Positions 9,120 to 62,095 of a stretch of 64,000 nt of DNA are shown piece by piece. The notes beneath the pieces were generated by a model. That model did not search any database, was not told the DNA's origin, and saw only the letters and a program-made list of their open reading frames with translations. Both the position numbers and the translations under genes were made by a program. The first letter of the stretch is position 1. Each line of letters opens with the position of its first letter. Source of the DNA: Octopus vulgaris (taxonomy: Eukaryota); assembly GCA_951406725.2 (NCBI GenBank), contig OX597837.1, positions 36,580,001 through 36,644,000 of the forward strand. Reading direction: 5' to 3'.

Positions 9120-9752
9120 AAGAGCAGACATCACATTGTTATGAACGGAACTGAGAAGGCAAGCGATGATGCTGTCAACAGGATTGGTGGAGTGTGTAGA
9201 CAACAGTGTTATCAACAGGAATAAAAGAACAGTCGGTACATTGTTATTACTGGAATTGGAAGTGCAGACGACAGTGTTATCCACAGAAGTGAAAGAGCAG
9301 ACGATACTCTTGTCAATCGGTTCGGACGAGCAGACGACAGTATTGTCAACGGAACTGAAAGAACAGATCTGTTGTTATTAGTTCGAACGAGCAGACGACA
9401 GAACGAGAGTGTTGTCAACAAAACTAAAAGAGTAAGCCATAATATTATCAACAAAATCGAACGAGAAAACGGCAGTGTTGTCGATACATTTGAAGGAGCA
9501 GGCAATAATATTGTCAACCGATTCGTATGTGCAGACGACAGTATTGTCAACAAGACAGAAAGAGCAGACGATACTGTTGTCAAAATATTTGAGCGAGCAG
9601 ACGACAGTATTCTTTATAGAACGAGACTGTTGTTAACAGAACTGAAAGAACATACAGTAATGTTGTTAGCCAATTCATGGGAGAAGACGACAGAATTCTC
9701 TAGAAAATTGAAAGAGCAGACGATAGCGTTGCCAACCAGTTCGAACGAGCAG
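9120..9752. repeat. Degenerate ~33 bp minisatellite (~19 units)
   Basis: Consensus ~GAGCAGACGACAGTATTGTCAACGGAACTGAAA. Confidence 0.75.
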
Positions 9753-9964
9753 GTTTATAGTATTTTAATTGACTCGTAATTTAGCCTCACCGTGTAAGGC
9801 AAACATCACGGTTAAAGCACACATAAAAAAATACTATCAATAATAATAAGCAAAGTCAACCTCAGCGGAAAATTTGAATCCAGAACGAAGGGACGGGCGA
9901 AATGCCGCTAAGGATTTTGCACTGCGTACTAATAATGATTCTGCCAGCTCGCCGCCTTAGTAAC

Positions 9965-14220: not shown

Positions 14221-14460
14221 GGAGTAGCTGTGTGGTAAATAGCTTGCTTACCAACCACATGGTTCCGGGTTCAGTCCTGCTACAGGGCACCTTGGGCAAG
14301 TGTCTTCTTCTATAGCCTCAGGTCGACGAAAGCCTTGTGTGTGGATTTGGTAGACGGAAACTGAAAGAAGCCCATCGTGTATGTATTTGTGAGTGTGTAA
14401 GTCTGTGTCTGTGTGTGTCTGTGTGTGTCTGTGTCTGTGTGTCTGTGTCTGTGTCTCTGT

Positions 14461-21702: not shown

Positions 21703-21809
21703 GGGGGAGGTAGAGAGAGAGAAGGAGGGAGAGAGAGAGAAGGAGGGAGAGAGAAAGAAGGAGGGAGCGAGAGAGAGATAGGCACCTACAAACTTGCATA
21801 TATACAAAC

Positions 21810-22213
21810 ATACATACATACATACATACATACATACACACATACAAACATACATACATACATGCATGCATGCATGCATACATACATACATACATACATA
21901 CATACATACATGCATGCATGCATGCATGCATACATACATACATACATACATACATACATACATACATGCATACATGCATGCATGCATACATACATACATA
22001 CATACATACATACATACATACATACATACAACATACATACATACATGCATGCATGCATGCATGCATACATACATACATACATACATACATACATACATAC
22101 ATACATACATGCATGCATGCATGCATACCTACATACATACATACATACATGCATGCATACATGCATGCATGCATACATACATACATACATACATACATAC
22201 ATACATACATACA

Positions 22214-22240
<27 letters not shown>
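21810..22240. repeat. (CATA/CATG)n microsatellite
   Basis: Direct observation. Confidence 0.95.
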
Positions 22241-22247
<7 letters not shown>

Positions 22248-22263
22248 AAATACAAAATGGGAC

Positions 22264-22343
22264 AAGTTCGTTATTTCTATAGTGAATCAATTTCGGAATT
22301 AATCTTATAATAGATTTTTTTCCTCTTCAGTAGAAAATACGAA
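22264..22343 (-). ncRNA. Type I hammerhead ribozyme, inverted partner copy
   Basis: Reverse complement of 22482-22560 except one extra A in stem II and one substitution giving a U.C mismatch in stem III. Triplet CUA, predicted cleavage between 22280 and 22279. Confidence 0.75.
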
Positions 22344-22481
22344 GTGGAGAACAGTTCACACGTGTGCTGAGGCTGACCAAGGGATTTTATATTTAGATAT
22401 ATCTGGGGTACTTATTTGTACTCATGATTTTTGCTTCGGCTTTTTTTCCATGGGCGCATGTAAATATTTCATTTATGTCTT

Positions 22482-22560
22482 TTCGTATTTTCTACTGAAG
22501 AGGAAAAAATCTATTATAAGATTAATTCCGAAATTGATTCAATATAGAAATAACGAACTT
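22482..22560 (+). ncRNA. Type I hammerhead ribozyme with canonical core
   Basis: Core CTGAAGA 22495-22501 and GAAA 22530-22533. Stem II GGAA/TTCC plus AATCT/AGATT with loop ATTATA. Stem III ATTG/CAAT with loop ATT. Triplet AUA, predicted cleavage after 22544. Stem I TTTCTA/TAGAAA, a 2x2 internal loop, then TTCGT/ACGAA. Confidence 0.85.
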
Positions 22561-22801
22561 TTTTTTAAAAATTCTATTGGCTAGCTTTCCTCGATTTCAG
22601 CTCTACGTGTTTTCTGTGGCGAGTAAATAATATGTGGAAATTGACGATTTAAGTCTGTTATCAGCATATTGGCATAGAAATAATTTTCTTTAGCCCTTGT
22701 TTATAAGTTGTTTATAATTTTAACCTTAAAAGTATTTTAATATGCTGCCACATATTTTGATGAAATTTTTCTCTGTAAAAAAGCTTCATCCTATATTAGT
22801 A

Positions 22802-22882
<81 letters not shown>

Positions 22883-23330
22883 TATATATGCATATACATA
22901 TATACATGCATGCATAAATATCGACATACCTATATACATATATATATATATATTTATACATCCATATGATATATATATATTTACATGTATACATACATAT
23001 ATGTATATAGTAATATATACATTCATATAATATGCATGCATACATACATACTTACATCAGATTAGTTCCCGATTAAGCAGCCACTAAAAGCCAAGATGTC
23101 ATGTAATAGTCTTTCATGGCGTGACATAAAGAAAGCAATCAACACGATCTTTATATATGCATCAATCAACGGCAATCATACTTCAGAATACTTGGCTGCC
23201 TAACCACTTGGATCGGCAGCATCTGCACGATCACACTACCTTTTATATTTGCGATATTTTGAGTAACAAATCACAAACTGCGATTGCGACGTAGGAGACA
23301 CAAGTTTGGGGAACCAAGAATCATTGATAA

Positions 23331-24358: not shown

Positions 24359-24435
<77 letters not shown>

Positions 24436-24448
24436 CACCTACTTAACT

Positions 24449-24644
24449 CGGAGTACCGCATATGTAACAATCGCATACGGTTGGGAATAACATACGGTAG
24501 TCAGTAGCAAACAGCATGGGAGCTTTTATGGGTACACTGGTGGGTATTTACCATATACACAATCATACAAACTCGGATATGTATGTATGGTCACTCCTGT
24601 TGGTTTCGACGTATCTTGTCCCAGTTTGTATATTTTTTTACTTT

Positions 24645-24697
<53 letters not shown>

Positions 24698-24873
24698 CCT
24701 AGGCTGCTAGGAGTACCGCATATGTAACAATCGCATACGGTTGGGAATAACATACGGTAGCCAGTAGCAAACAGTGTAGGAGCTTTTATGGGTACACTGG
24801 TGGGTATTTACCATATACACAATCATACAAACTCGGATATGCATGTATGGTCGCTCCTGTCGGTTTCGACGTA
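24449..24873. repeat. Tandem duplication of a ~165 bp unit separated by (TA)n
   Basis: GGAGTACCGCATATGTAAC...GGTTTCGACGTAT at 24450-24613 and 24710-24873. Confidence 0.85.
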
Positions 24874-25614
24874 TGAGTATTTGAAGGAAATAGAAAGTAA
24901 GAGAAGTAATAGAAAGAAAAAAAGAAAGGAAGGAAGAAAGAAGGGAAGAAGGGGGGAAAGAAAAAAGAAAGAAGGGAGGAAGGAAAGAAAGAAGGAAGGA
25001 AGGAAGGAAAGAAGGAAGAATGGAAGAAAAGAAGGGTAGATGAAAGGAAAGAAGGAAGGCAGGAAGGAAGGAAAGCAAGAAGGAAGGAAGGAAAGAACGA
25101 AAGAAAGAAAGAAAGAAAGAAGAAAGAAAGAAAGAAAGAGGGGACGAAGGAAGGAAGAAACAAGGAAGGAAAAGAAAGAAAGAAAGAAAGAAAGAAAGAA
25201 TGGAAATGGGAAGGAAGGAGGAAAAGAGAAAGAAAGAAAGAAAGAAAGAAAGAAAAAGAAGGAAGGAAAGAAGGAAAGAAAGAAAGAAGGAAAGAAAGAA
25301 AGGAGCTACATCTATTTGTGATGGATGTGTGAATATAATTGGAGTCCAGATTTGGGTTTTACTATGAAGTCACCAAGGAGACGATGATTCTGATTTTGCC
25401 TGGGATTAGACACACAGACAGACAGACAGACAAGCTTCCATATAGTTTCTATCTACAAAATTCATTCACAAAGCACTGACCAGCCCAAGGTTATCATAGA
25501 AAACGCTTGCCCAACGTGTCACAGTTTGAGATTGAACCCAAAACCTCATGATTGCAAACTAAGCTCATTAACCACACAGCCATGCCTGTACTTTAGGATT
25601 GAATCTCAGCAAAG

Positions 25615-34157: not shown

Positions 34158-34735
34158 TGGTGGTGGTGGTGGTGGAATGTTGTGTTGCGGTGCTAGTGTA
34201 CAACGGAGTAATGGTTGTTGTTGTGGTAGTAGTGGTGTGGTGGTTGTTGTAGCAGTTGTATTTCGGTGGTGGTGGTGGTGGTGGTGGTGGTGGTGGTGGT
34301 GGTGGAATGTTGTGTTGCGGTGTTAGTGTACGACAACGGAGTAATGGTTGTTGTTGCGGTAGTAGTGGTGTGTGGTTGTGGTTGTTGTAGTATTAGTATG
34401 GTGGTGGTGGTGGTGGAATGTTGTGTTGCGGTGTTAGTGTACGACAACGGAGTAATGGTTGTTGTTGCGGTAGTAGTGGTGTGGTGGTTGTTGTAGCAGT
34501 AGTATTTCGGTGGTGGTGGTGGTGGTGGAATGTTGTGTTGCGGTGTTAGTGTACGACAACGGAGTAATGGTTGTTGTTGTGGTAGTAGTGGTGTGGTGGT
34601 TGTTGTAGCAGTAGTATTTCGGTGGTGGTGGTGGTGGTGGAATGTTGTGTTGCGGTGTTAGTGTACGACAACGGAGTAATGGTTGTTGTTGCGGTAGTAG
34701 TGGTGTGGTGGTTGTTGTAGCAGTAGTATTTCGGT
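34158..34735. repeat. ~110-120 bp minisatellite, 5 copies
   Basis: Repeated GGAATGTTGTGTTGCGGTGTTAGTGTACGACAACGGAGTAATGG. Confidence 0.85.
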
Positions 34736-35494
34736 GGTGGTGGTGGTGCTGGTGGTGCTGGTAGTGATGCTGGTGGTGCTGGTGGTGGTGCTGGTGGTGG
34801 TGGTAGTGGTGGTGGTGGTGGTGGTGGTGATTATGGCGGTGGTGGGGTAGGATGAGGGTAGGCACTGCTACTGTTCCTGCTGATGCCGATGGTGGTTGTG
34901 AAGGTGGTAACGGTGGTGATGGTGGTAGTTGCCGTGGTGGTGGTGGTGGTGGTGGCGGTGGTGGCGGTGGCGGTGGTGGCGGTGGTGGTGGCGGTGGTGG
35001 TGGCGGTGGTGGTGGCGGCAGTGGTGCGTTATGAATTTACAATATTTCATTTCCACAAAGGAAATGTCCATATTAGTCCAGGGGCGATGTTGGTGGGGTG
35101 GAATGAAGGGTGGATGTCATTAATGGATTTAGGCTGGTTGTATTAATGGCGCAGAGAAGAGTAGCCGGTGGCTGGATGGTGGTGGTGGTATCGGTGGAGA
35201 GGAGGGGGTTATTGGTAGGGCCATGAAGGCAGCGGTGGAGGGGAGAAACGGGTGGAAGCGTAGACAACGGTGATAGTTGTGGCATTGAGGCGGGGGTGTT
35301 AATAGGGGTGGGTGGGTGTGTGGGAGGTTCGTGATCTTGACAACTGTTGGGAGGAGGTGGCGGTGTGAGGAGAGGGTCATAAACGTTGATAATGGGTTGT
35401 CGATGGTAGTTGGTGGTGGTCGTGGTCGTGGTCGTCGTCGTCGTCGTCGTGGAGGTGGTGGTGGTAGTGGTGCTGCTGCTGCTGCTACTGATGA

Positions 35495-39336: not shown

Positions 39337-39757
39337 CTATTTAATCCTTTATTGCCCACAAGGGGCTAAACATAGAGGAGACAAACAAGGACAGAAAAAG
39401 GGACTAAGTCGATTACATCGACCCCAGTGCGTAACTGGTACTTAATTTATCGACCCCGAAAGGATGAAAGGCAAAGTCGACCTCAACAGAATTTGAACTC
39501 AGAACGTAGCAGCAGACGAAATACCTATTTCTTTACTACTCACAAGGAGCTAAACACAGAGGGGACAAACAAGGACAGACAAACGGATTAAGTCGATTAT
39601 ATCGCCCCCAGTGCGTAACTGGTACTTAATTTATCGACCCCGAAAGGATGAAAGGTAAAGTCGACCTCGGCGGAATATGAACTCAGAACGTAACGGCAGA
39701 CGAAATACCGCTCAGCATTTTGCCCGGCGCCCTAACGTTTCTGCCAACTCGCCACCT
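39337..39757 (-). mobile_element. Family B SINE dimer
   Basis: Two head-to-tail units. Confidence 0.85.
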
Positions 39758-48447: not shown

Positions 48448-50470
48448 TTATCACAGCTGAGGAGGCTTTGTCGAACTGCGGCGAGAACAAGTCACCAGGA
48501 CTAGATGGTCTCCCCTACGAGCTTTATAACAGTATCAGACTTGTTCGGGCACCTACTGGTATGTGTCCTCACCAACTGATAATAGAATGGGTTTAAACCC
48601 AGATCTGTGAGCCGGGGAGTGGTGACGCTGCTTAGAAAGGAGCCAAACAAGGAGGATATTATAAATAATTTCAGGCCCATCACTCTGTTTAACACAGAAT
48701 TGAATATTTTGGCCAAGATGTTAGCAAAAAAGTTGGCACGTGTCGTGGGTGGAATCGTCGAGGAGGCACAAACTTGTGCCGTTCCTAGCAGATCCATACA
48801 CGACAATCTCCACCTTCTACGCTACACCTTAGAGAGGGTTAACGGGTCTCCTAGCCAGGGTGGGGCGCTGGTTCCTTTAGACCAGTCCAAAGCTTTTGAC
48901 AGGGTTGACCATCGGTATCTTGGGTCGGTTCTCGCGGCATTCGGGCTTGGCCCCGTCTTCCGCGGGTGGATCATTGCTTTATACAGCAACATCGGGTTCT
49001 TCTCGAAGCCGTTCAACATCAAACGCTCGGTTCGTCAAGGGTGTCCTCTATCCCCACTTTCTATAGCCTACGGAAGTTTGAGAGCTTGGGAGGCGTCCCA
49101 CGCGATCTAGGTGGCAGTAGGAAGGTTTCGGCGTATGCGGATGACATCACCATCATCGTGTCCGAGATAGTACACCTACAGAGTGTAGGCAAAGCCATTA
49201 AGGACTACGAGGCGGTGGTAGGAGCATAAGTTAACCGAGATGGGTCAGTCGGCACCTGGAGAGGCAGACGATACCTCCCAACAGCGTCGTAGAGCATTAG
49301 ACGGAGGGCCCGGTTAAAATGCTAGGGTTTGGTTTGGTCCAGACCTCCAGATAGAGAAGAATTGGAGCGAGGTGACAAGCAGGGTGACCTACCAAAATCA
49401 GACCTGGTCTCAGCGGAGGCTATCCCTAAAAGGAAGGACGGAAGTCGAAGGAGTGTTTATCGCTTCTGTGATTACTTACCGCCTAACCGTTGTGCCGTGC
49501 CCCATTCGTGGACGATCAAGTTGGAGCGGCTGCTCTTCTGCTTTTTGTGGAGTGGTAGAAGTCCTCTTGTAAAGCGCCCTGTCTACTGCCAGCACACGCT
49601 AAAGAGTGGGCTAGGGATGCCTTGGCTGTTGATGCGCAGACATGCGCTGAGGCCGAGGTATATGTGGCTCTACCTGGATGGTGAACAGGTGTGGTCTCCG
49701 TTCGTTCGGTCGTTACTTCCTGAGTTTACTAGTTTGAGTGAACTAGGACCTTGGATCAAGTGTAGACCAAAGTTGGGTGCTTGGCGAGCGGAGTGTCGTG
49801 AGGCACTCAAGCTTCTTTGTCACACGGGCAACACCAGTGGCGGGGGTTCCACCTCCGCTTTCTATAGAGGGCTGGAAGAAACTCAGTGTGACGACCTCCT
49901 GGGGAAGACTAGGCTTCGATGGGAATCAACTAAGCAGTCTATTCCGAAGGACATTCGGACCAGGACCCTTGGATAACTTCCAGGGATCCCTGACCTAGCA
50001 GTGTTACCGAGGAGCCTTACCAGTTCGCGATAAACTCGCAAGGCATGGTGCCCCTTGCGCACCCACGTGTCCAAGACGCGAGCAGGACAGGGAAATCGTT
50101 CTGCACGCAATTGTGCAATGCCTCAAAATCTCTGAGTTGTGGGTTTACGTTGAACATCTGCTGTCACGGCTGGGAAGAGTACAACTGTCTTCCGAGTCGG
50201 TTGTAAAGATTGTTCCTCCTGCCTCTTTTAACAAAGAAGGCAAGGCTTGTTTTCTCGCTGTGGTCGCTACAGCGAAAGAAGCTGTATGGAAGACCCGCGT
50301 GAAAGGAATCGTGACAGGTACACTCATCTCCAGCCTTGGACTGGTCCATTACTTCATCTACCACCTTAAGAGGAAAATAAGGGTGGAGAGAAAATGCCTG
50401 TAACCTGATGTATATGGAAAAAAGATGGAAGGCTGTGGCGCGTTTGTTGCGAATGAATGAACCCACATGG
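48448..50470 (+). mobile_element. Decayed 5'-truncated L1/Tx1-clade LINE ORF2 (reverse transcriptase and C-terminus)
   Basis: KSPGLDGLPYE, FRPITLFNTELNILAK, LDQSKAFDRVDH, VRQGCPLSPL, SAYADDIT and GLGMP motifs; multiple stops and frameshifts. Confidence 0.92.
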
Positions 50471-50771: not shown

Positions 50772-50999
50772 TACTAGAGGTTACAGTGGTGGCACGGGGC
50801 TTACGGGGTCGAAGCAAAACCCGTCCCCCTCATCATTGCGCATTTGTTTTGCTTATCATTTGTTTAGCATTCGATTATATAAATGTTTAACTTTTCACCT
50901 CTGTATGAAAACCATACGCACCATCGACCCCTCCCTCATTTGTACCATCCCTCTATGTTTAGTCCCCTGTAGGCAATAAAGAAAACGTGGTTATAATCA

Positions 51000-52285
51000 T
51001 CTGAAATGGAACTGTCAAAGCGCGATATTCGAGCAATTTTGATATTCAACTTCAGAAAAGAACGTAAAGCAGCTGAAACTGCTCACGATATCAACGAAAT
51101 GTTTGGTAAAGAAATGACCAGTCAGTGGTCAGCTCGAAAATGGTTTAAACGATTTCGCAGTGAAGACCTGAGCCTTGAAGAGTGTGAGAAAGATCCACGA
51201 AAAATCACTCGAGAACTAGCAAAAGAAATTCAAGAAAACCAGAAAACTGCCTGCAGCCATTTCCATGCGATCGGAAAATCAAAAAAGCTCGACAAATGGC
51301 TACCACACGATTTGAAATAAAAATCAGAAAATGCGCAGATATGAAATTTACTCGTCACTTCTCCGTAACCAGACCTATTTCTTTATTATCCACAAGGGGC
51401 TAAACATAGAGAGGACAAACATGGACAGACATAGGTATTAAGTCGATTATATCGACCCCAGTGCTTAACTGGTACTTAATTTATCGACCCCGAAAGGATG
51501 AAAGGCAAAGTCGACCACGGCGGAATTTGAACTCACAACGTAACGGCAGCCGAAATACCGCTAAGCATTTCGCCCGACGTGCTAACGATTCTGATAGCTC
51601 GCCGCCTTTTTCTCCGTAACCAGACCGATTCATTTCTCGACCGTATTGTAACTTGCGATGAAAAGTGGACTCTGTACAATAATAAAGAAAAAAACATTTT
51701 TCGCAATGGTTGGACCAAAATGAAGCACCGAAAAATCTTCCTTAAATCCGAGCTCTTCAAAAAGAAGGTTATAGTGACTGCTTGATGGTGTACTGTTGGA
51801 CTCGTCCACTATAACTTCTTAAAACCCGGAAAAACCATTACTGCAGAAACATATTGGCATGAAATTGCCAAAATGAACAAAAAGCCGCTACTCCTCTGTC
51901 TCAGTCTGGTCAACAGAAGAGGGTCAATCATTCTTCATGACAATGCTCAACCACGTTTCACTAATGACGCTCCAGGAGTTGAGGGAACTTGGCTACGAAG
52001 TTCTTCCCCGCCAAGCTTATTCCCCAGACCTTTCTCCTACAGGCCTACCACTTTTTCAAGCACCTTGATGGTTTCCTTCGAGAGAAGGAGTTGAAACATC
52101 AAATCGATGCTGAAAGTGCGATCAAAGAGTTCATCAGCTCCAGAACTCCATACTTTTATGATATCGGAATAAACTAACTTGTAACTCGTTGGCAAAAATG
52201 TGTTGATTGTAATAGTATTTACTTTGAGGAAAAAAATTACCGCATTGTTGAAATACATTGTGATGAATTTCATGTTTCAAAACAT
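51000..52285 (+). mobile_element. Decayed mariner (DD34D) transposon interrupted by a SINE
   Basis: N-terminal HTH (KAAETAHDINEMFG..RKWFKRFR), KLDKWLPHDL, RIVTCDEKW, ILHDNAQP and a remnant of YSPDL..YHFF; stops and frameshifts present. Confidence 0.9.
51376..51609 (-). mobile_element. SINE family B, full length with 17 bp TSD
   Basis: TSD TTCTCCGTAACCAGACC at 51359-51375 and 51610-51626; B-box-like GAGTTCAAATTCC. Confidence 0.9.
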
Positions 52286-61080: not shown

Positions 61081-62095
61081 ATACAAGGTACAACTGTTGC
61101 CATTTTATACTTTTAATTTTGCGCATGCGCTTTGTTTTTTGTTTTTGTTGTTGTTTTTTTTCGACTAAACAGTATAGTAGGGTTAGTTGGGCACCGTCTG
61201 TTAGAAAACAGCACCATGACGCAATTCACCTTGCGAGAAATTTGGAAACGACATGTTGTACTGCTTGGCATTCGCGCCGAAAGCTCCAATTTTTATCCCC
61301 CAAGCCATCAAGGACAAGAAGAAAAACCGTGCTAGGAAGCCTTTGAACAAACTCAGGCATCCCCTCGAACCGAACATGCTTTGAGTTTTCTCAGACGAGA
61401 AAAATTTCTACCAGGATCAGATGGTGAACACAGAACAACCGATGGCTTTCCGTGTCCCCCAAATATGTACCGAAAGTGATAAAAATCAAACATCCAGTCA
61501 ATATCATGGTGTTTGGAGTGATCACTCGTGATGGCGAAGTTATGCCTCTATTCATCTTCCCAAACGGCCTCAGACTCAATGCGGAGGCCTACATCAAGTG
61601 CCTGGAAGGGGTAGTACTGCCCTGGGTTAAGAGGGTGGCTGCTAGAAGAACCTATATCTGGCAACAGGACTCTGCACCACGCTGTACAAGCAGAAGAACC
61701 CAGTCATGGCTGTCAGACAATTTCTGCGACCACATCACCCCTAACATCTGGCCACCTAACTCAACCAGACTGCAACCCCCTTGATTAGTATGTGTGGGAT
61801 GCAGTTAAGCGAGAGGCCAACAAAACTCCTTGTAACACCAAAGATGAACAGAAGGCAAGGATTATGGCAGCATTCACCATCTTAAACAAGGAGACCGTCC
61901 AGAAGAATTGCAGGAGATTCCGAAGTCGTCTGGAGGCCATAGCTGAAGCCAGACGATTTTATTGAATTAATTTACTCTTTTAGTATTTCAAGATATTTTA
62001 ATGTAATTTTGGTAAATATATCTGTTAAAATGAGATGTCAGCGTTATTTTCTTTTTTGCGTAATTTAGACGACAGTTTATTCACCGCACCCTGCA
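61081..62095 (+). mobile_element. Decayed DD37D (maT-family) DNA transposon
   Basis: FSDEKNF, IMVFGVI, WQQDSAP and WPPNS/PDCNPLD motifs. After correcting one frameshift there are 37 residues between the 2nd and 3rd Asp. Right end reads TTTATTCACCGCACCCTG. Confidence 0.85.

Follow-up and report, generated by a model that had tools for sequence, protein, structure and literature searches.

Features of the locus

The window (the whole 64-kb stretch of DNA analysed here) is microsatellite-rich eukaryotic DNA with octopus-like repeats. Between two microsatellites it carries a pair of outward-facing arms of one repeat family, family A, with the following features:

21797..22247, no strand: (CATA)n/(TA)n microsatellite, left flank
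22247..22266, no strand: terminus (20 nt) of another abundant (TA)n-anchored repeat, with the same terminus at loci L017, L063, L065 and L106
22264..22343, minus strand: second, inverted arm, monomer positions ~141-218; its hammerhead motif is mismatched in stem III at 22282, a change private to this arm; outer end truncated
22343..22803, plus strand: main arm, a 5'-truncated family A copy (monomer positions 1-461; 93% identity to another copy)
22344..22481, plus strand: the apparent spacer, an ordinary 5' part of the monomer (positions 2-139, its first ~140 nt)
22483..22559, plus strand: type I hammerhead motif, with distal and proximal stem I, core CUGAAGA at 22495-22501, bipartite stem II at 22502-22529, GAAA at 22530-22533, stem III at 22533-22543 and a predicted cut after 22544 (AUA)
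22694..22710, plus strand: site S1, the first fixed 3' end of the family (monomer ~367-375), read through in this copy
22710..22803, plus strand: S1-S2 tail of ~94 nt; S2 (monomer ~461-463), at 22803, is the 3' end of this copy and abuts (TA)n
22805..23019, no strand: right-hand (TA)n microsatellite, the likely target

The first-pass annotation described a bidirectional hammerhead cassette at 22247-22560. Its near-perfect inverted arms were reproduced at 22264-22343 and 22482-22560, with 97.5% identity (80 columns with a single mismatch and a single indel). The boundaries of the unit were wrong, as the element runs 243 nt beyond 22560 to 22803 and 22247-22266 belongs to an unrelated repeat, the terminus of which is fused to the outer end of the left arm with a 3-nt overlap (22264-22266). 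Either a later deletion or a template switch onto this neighbouring repeat may have cost the left arm its outer part. Both arms carry a G-to-A variant that is rare in the family (3 of 37 family A motifs), which is expected if both were copied in one event.

Near-perfect 80-bp arms around a 138-bp spacer could also be read as the terminal inverted repeats of a MITE or foldback DNA transposon. Against this, a longer monomer encloses the right arm, no second copy of the layout was found among the candidates scored, and there is no target duplication at 22264/22560; we give this explanation practically no weight.

The repeat unit is a tandem monomer

A search of the 2.8-Gb assembly with 22255-22570 gave 89 matches from the best 40 of 1482 candidates scored, among which the best match beyond the window covers query positions 89-316 and not the inverted layout. 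In other copies the repeat continues downstream, and the same downstream sequence also lies upstream, which defines a tandem monomer of ~509 nt. Copies are circularly permuted versions of this tandem, with a period of 469-520 nt across families. The family A core pattern has at least 191 exact matches in the genome (reversed control, 0), and a 22-mer common to the sister families has 569. These sister families, B, D and E, are ~70-78% identical and arranged alike, at periods close to 469-490 nt.

The monomer is non-coding (longest stop-free stretch 68 aa) and low in GC (0.30-0.31), as retrozymes are. At the level of the family (L007, L048, L065, L133, L172), rather than of the window locus, it has the make-up of a non-LTR retrozyme. 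Like the metazoan elements of this kind described by Cervera and de la Pena (2020, PMC7229834) and Li et al. (2026, bioRxiv 10.64898/2026.07.22.740005), it is an AT-rich tandem monomer with one type I hammerhead that has a weak stem III and could work as a dimer. It differs from the elements as described there in its monomer length, which lies above the quoted 150-450 bp (a reported range, not a strict criterion), and in that its copies, known here from DNA, are mostly dispersed one- to two-mers with fixed ends and inverted arms, not long arrays. The earlier proposal of a hammerhead of Penelope or retrozyme kind within a non-coding mobile element agrees well with this repeat family.

A splice-donor-like site lies at 22460, reading GTAAAT in the window copy and GT(A/G)AGT in the majority of copies in every family. 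The longer form GT(A/G)AGTA, ~35 nt upstream of the hammerhead core, is kept in families A, B, D and E, and its placement resembles that of the intron in Penelope pseudo-LTRs (pLTRs). Contigs from 8 runs showed no spliced form or GT..AG joint, an absence that proves nothing. Folding of the monomer as a circle was mildly better than for doublet shuffles (z -1.1 to -3.6) and was set aside as evidence. At L033/L034 (G000 C25, ~39.60-39.62 Mb), one composite insertion is present twice, inverted and ~20 kb apart, as a segmental duplication.

The hammerhead motifs and their stems

The plus arm has the CUGANGA, GAAA and NUH core elements and stems I-III of a type I hammerhead, at the positions first annotated (CUGAAGA at 22495, GAAA at 22530, predicted cleavage after 22544). 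The minus-strand core at 22330 and its predicted cleavage site between 22280 and 22279 were likewise found. The minus arm has otherwise the same core, but beside the core A-U pair its U15.2 and C16.2 (window 22282) do not pair, so that the description of each arm as a complete hammerhead is not borne out for stem III of the minus arm. When the 64-kb window was scanned for motifs with stems I/II/III of 6/4/3 pairs, the plus motif alone reached these lengths and the minus arm did not.

Searches against Rfam returned no hammerhead at E up to 10, nor at E up to 1 in a separate scan; the matches were just microsatellite-driven miRNA noise. Folding of the arms alone gave a partial structure, since the unconstrained fold of either arm lacks stem III and pairs the core UGAA with UUCA instead. 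As a hairpin, stem III is unstable (+1.8 kcal/mol when forced). In families A and B it is self-complementary, with a predicted self-duplex of -6.7 kcal/mol (A) or -12.3 kcal/mol (B). A favourable self-duplex with no hairpin is in keeping with the double-hammerhead mode reported for retrozymes of metazoans (PMC4209133, PMC7229834). That mode needs two same-sense copies, and the window locus has one per strand. Judged from its sequence, the plus arm is a real hammerhead motif, with predicted ribozyme activity.

To examine covariation, 74 motifs were gathered with a core-demanding pattern, and an alignment of 32, picked so as to cover four families, was made under a structure drawn from the window's copy. 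In this alignment 91.4% of cells are paired and both partners vary in 9 of the 23 pairs, compared with 0-3 pairs in slid-partner controls. The stems are thus kept through compensatory change, though the 32 rows are kin from four related families and so represent few independent events, and the invariance of the core is partly built in by the pattern used to collect them. Positions in stem I alternate between U-A, C-G and A-U from family to family. The G10.1-C11.1 pair is broken in 13 of the 32 rows, mostly in families D and E. Families D (L122-L140) and E (L091-L093) are abundant even though the base of their stem II has A10.1 facing C11.1.

Inverted arms are common in the family and vary in layout

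The inverted layout was compared across the genome. An 81-nt query over the junction was spanned by the window itself alone (1 of 63 matches, from the best 40 of 194 candidates scored). Among the first 100 core matches listed, 8 of 91 loci have opposite-strand cores within 1.5 kb, all of them outward-facing, at spacings of 138, 143, 171, 266, 272, 368, 474 and 1239 nt, compared with 172 nt in the window. Even the locus with a spacing of 171 nt (L025) has a different junction. The copies therefore share no conserved cassette; the shared unit is the tandem monomer, inverted at many points. The annotation had itself named a one-off Penelope-type inversion as the outcome that would undo its proposal: this describes the layout correctly but not the ribozyme, the stems of which covary.

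We mapped 93 distinct insertions (60 of family A, 20 of B and 13 of D), two of which are probably one duplicated locus; some of the 13 loci of family D had been selected as pairs. Outward-facing two-arm insertions account for 47 of the 93, and 14, the window included, have a full hammerhead on both strands. A later set of 40 further family A loci, made up of 4 picked as pairs and 36 unseen singles taken in list order, contains 16 two-armed insertions. By eye, several copies scored as one-armed carry inverted arms of 5-25 nt from the other site, which lie outside these counts. It seems likely that the inverted arm is an ordinary by-product of Penelope-type retrotransposition and not a purpose-built switch.

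An inversion that arose after the insertion, by replication template switch or repair, or an artefact of assembly, would account for a left arm that has no canonical end and is fused to another repeat. The junction at 22343 is also unbridged in the contigs of 8 runs, although such a hole proves nothing. Since head-to-head arms are the norm in the family, and two private differences between the arms speak against a pure assembly duplication, we consider this improbable.

A transcript-dependent switch is not supported

The first-pass annotation further suggested that a read-through RNA would lock the ribozyme in a long hairpin, and equilibrium folding predicts just this. The probability of stems I and II together is 0.78 for RNAs starting at 22344 or 22482, 0.02 for a start at 22400 and about 1e-47 for the read-through RNA. 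Such on/off behaviour by start site, together with arms that are 97.5% complementary, is what would be expected of a functional transcript-dependent switch, or of a source of dsRNA that the host retains. The lock-up, however, would be seen with any inverted copy and does not point to selection, and high arm identity is equally what one recent event gives. Neither the junction (seen once in the best 40 of 194 candidates) nor the spacing recurs at other paired loci, the minus arm has its stem III mismatch, and the donor-like site of the plus copy is mutated. The switch proposed earlier is for these reasons very improbable at this locus. We instead favour a hammerhead pair with no selected function here, which the read-through hairpin is predicted to silence on both strands.

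Contigs of runs under three species labels cover parts of the monomer; none of the runs is on record as RNA, and contigs cannot show ends or circles. In them we found no sign of a switch, of transcription across the 22343 junction or of editing. Contig ends at 22543 (X3, X6) and 22544 (X1) were considered as products of in vivo cleavage and rejected as graph branching: a variant at 22513 lies 31 letters from the ends, and a branch in a graph of 31-letter words explains at least the X3 end and one X6 end. A>G differences in the contigs were rejected as editing and assigned to paralogue variants.

Two fixed 3' ends and (TA)n targets

Canonical ends adjoin TA repeats in 101 of 111 cases in the mapped set and 37 of 38 in the later set (138 of 149 in all), as expected for the (TA)n microsatellite targets of Penelope-type elements. 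Where both ends of a mapped insertion are canonical, one is S1 and the other S2 in 23 of 25 cases; S1/S1 occurs twice and S2/S2 never. The expected share of S1+S2, calculated from 24 S1 and 18 S2 one-arm copies, is 0.49 (p about 6e-6). All five such insertions in the later set also combine S1 with S2, giving 28 of 30 overall. Two-arm insertions with at least one non-canonical end (22 of 47 mapped and 11 of 16 later, the window included) are uninformative on this rule.

In L1 twin priming, a second nick primes a second cDNA, which yields an inverted arm. The use of different sites in 28 of 30 insertions suggests a two-site form of twin priming. It differs from the L1 case in that each arm begins at a fixed site close to the 3' end and the sequences of the two arms overlap. 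One linear monomer could give this overlap only with strand displacement; otherwise a multimer, a circle or a second RNA would be required.

Penelope-like elements (PLEs) are described as carrying an inverted 5'-truncated copy, with a tail that is often one-sided and a bias towards (TA)n (PMC8557442, PMC3846280); the tail is the stretch between two reverse transcriptase (RT) start sites (PMC11167929). The octopus family has the same two 3' ends with a one-sided tail and the same inverted, 5'-truncated, head-to-head arm. With the endonuclease-bearing (EN+) Neptune-type PLEs of these three papers it further shares partial tandems, (TA)n targets and a hammerhead near the 3' end. In contrast to the elements as described there, it has no ORF, its hammerhead is a full three-stem form where that of PLEs is minimal, and its tail is ~94 nt long, compared with a printed 30-40 nt.

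Hammerhead pairs on opposite strands, 100-700 bp apart, have been described in truncated PLEs of Schistosoma mansoni (PMC4209133). The pairs in that account are minimal motifs of Cercyon pLTRs, whereas those found here have the canonical type I form and sit in a non-coding monomer. As inverted pairs from truncated Penelope-type insertions are already in print, a bidirectional ribozyme cassette as such matters little, and the use of different sites, S1 and S2, is the one new point. It provides a countable constraint on an integration mechanism that is called unresolved in the field (PMC8557442, PMC11167929). The family itself is of modest value in showing the complete insertion signature of Penelope elements in a repeat that fits the retrozyme definition (hammerhead monomers, tandem and non-coding). 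It is the family and the S1/S2 rule, more than the window locus, that carry the interest. A literature search found no cephalopod retrozyme and no count of S1/S2 pairing; species tables in supplements, or Repbase and Dfam, may hold the family.

The candidate mobilising enzyme

The genome has many intact 781-aa frames that join an RT to a GIY-YIG domain through a CX4CX2C linker, and this linker, as described in PMC8557442, makes them Neptune-like. A pLTR homologous to the monomers was absent from 44 GIY-YIG-centred stretches (the top of 6136 candidates), where the one homology was a family B copy inserted beside an element, and no RT and GIY-YIG ORF linked to the monomer repeat was found there. 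The stretches instead hold several Neptune-like families with non-homologous pLTRs of their own, some of them with two ends of their own. For this reason the mobilising enzyme is deduced from insertion architecture.

A young Neptune-like element (L094 1406-5087 and L100 1081-4781; G000 C16 and C5), many copies of which are intact, has an upstream ORF of ~480 aa followed by a 781-aa RT-GIY-YIG frame. CCAAT/TGACGTC boxes recur in its pLTR, together with an apparent U3-A8 minimal hammerhead variant.

The family might alternatively be the solo pLTR of an unfound autonomous PLE, amplified as 5'-truncated ends, instead of a self-standing retrozyme. The two layouts are alike (donor-like site, hammerhead, two RT start sites), and retrozymes have been argued to derive from pLTRs (bioRxiv 10.64898/2026.07.22.740005). 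Every long copy inspected, however, runs from monomer into monomer with no ORF (stop-free stretches of at most 68 aa), and the GIY-YIG stretches, apart from the family B copy, show no homology downstream. A solo pLTR is in our view unlikely, if the strongest of the alternatives.

Proposed mechanism

We propose, with a probability of roughly 0.85, that the locus arose when a non-LTR retrozyme, a non-coding tandem repeat of ~509 nt with a hammerhead, inserted once in head-to-head form. A Neptune-type Penelope-like enzyme likely copied it into (TA)n, and the inverted arm is likely a product of that one event. This reading draws on the tandem monomer, the two fixed 3' ends, the (TA)n targets, the variable inversion points, the covarying stems and the rare variant seen in both arms. 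Tandem source loci would be transcribed, and their hammerheads, probably acting as double hammerheads through the self-complementary stem III, would cut the RNA to monomers, which may circularise. An RT/GIY-YIG protein would then nick both (TA)n strands and prime two cDNAs, the first from S1 and the second from S2. Joining of the two cDNAs at their truncated ends would produce outward-facing arms. At the window locus, such an event would have left the S2 arm intact and the other arm without its outer part.

More tentatively, and with odds that we place somewhat below even, a single RNP may use a different fixed RNA site, S1 or S2, to prime each end of a (TA)n break, making the head-to-head arms and the one-sided tail products of one mechanism. 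The ORF-less RNAs would probably be double-hammerhead circles, trans-mobilised by Neptune elements. If so, at least four retrozyme families of ~0.5 kb would record Penelope-like integration and give direct structural proof that Neptune elements trans-mobilise the retrozymes of animals. They would also be a ready substrate for testing it, and would seed dozens of long hairpins in the host genome.

Other features of the window

Abundant (TA)n-anchored repeats with hammerhead-like cores also occur near 14250 and 60270 (minus strand) in the window, and likewise at L017 2034, L063, L065 and L106. They include the repeat whose terminus abuts the left arm and are probably further Penelope-derived families. 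Broken LINE-like reverse transcriptase frames lie at 48586-50403, and what we take to be remnants of Mariner/Tc1-like transposases at 50997-52094 and 61428-61784. A 184-aa stop-free frame at 9225-9779 overlies a degenerate 33-nt repeat and is a possible coding exon. Local tandem duplications are found at 24387-24874 (260 nt), 34286-34752 (112 nt) and 39357-39709 (184 nt).
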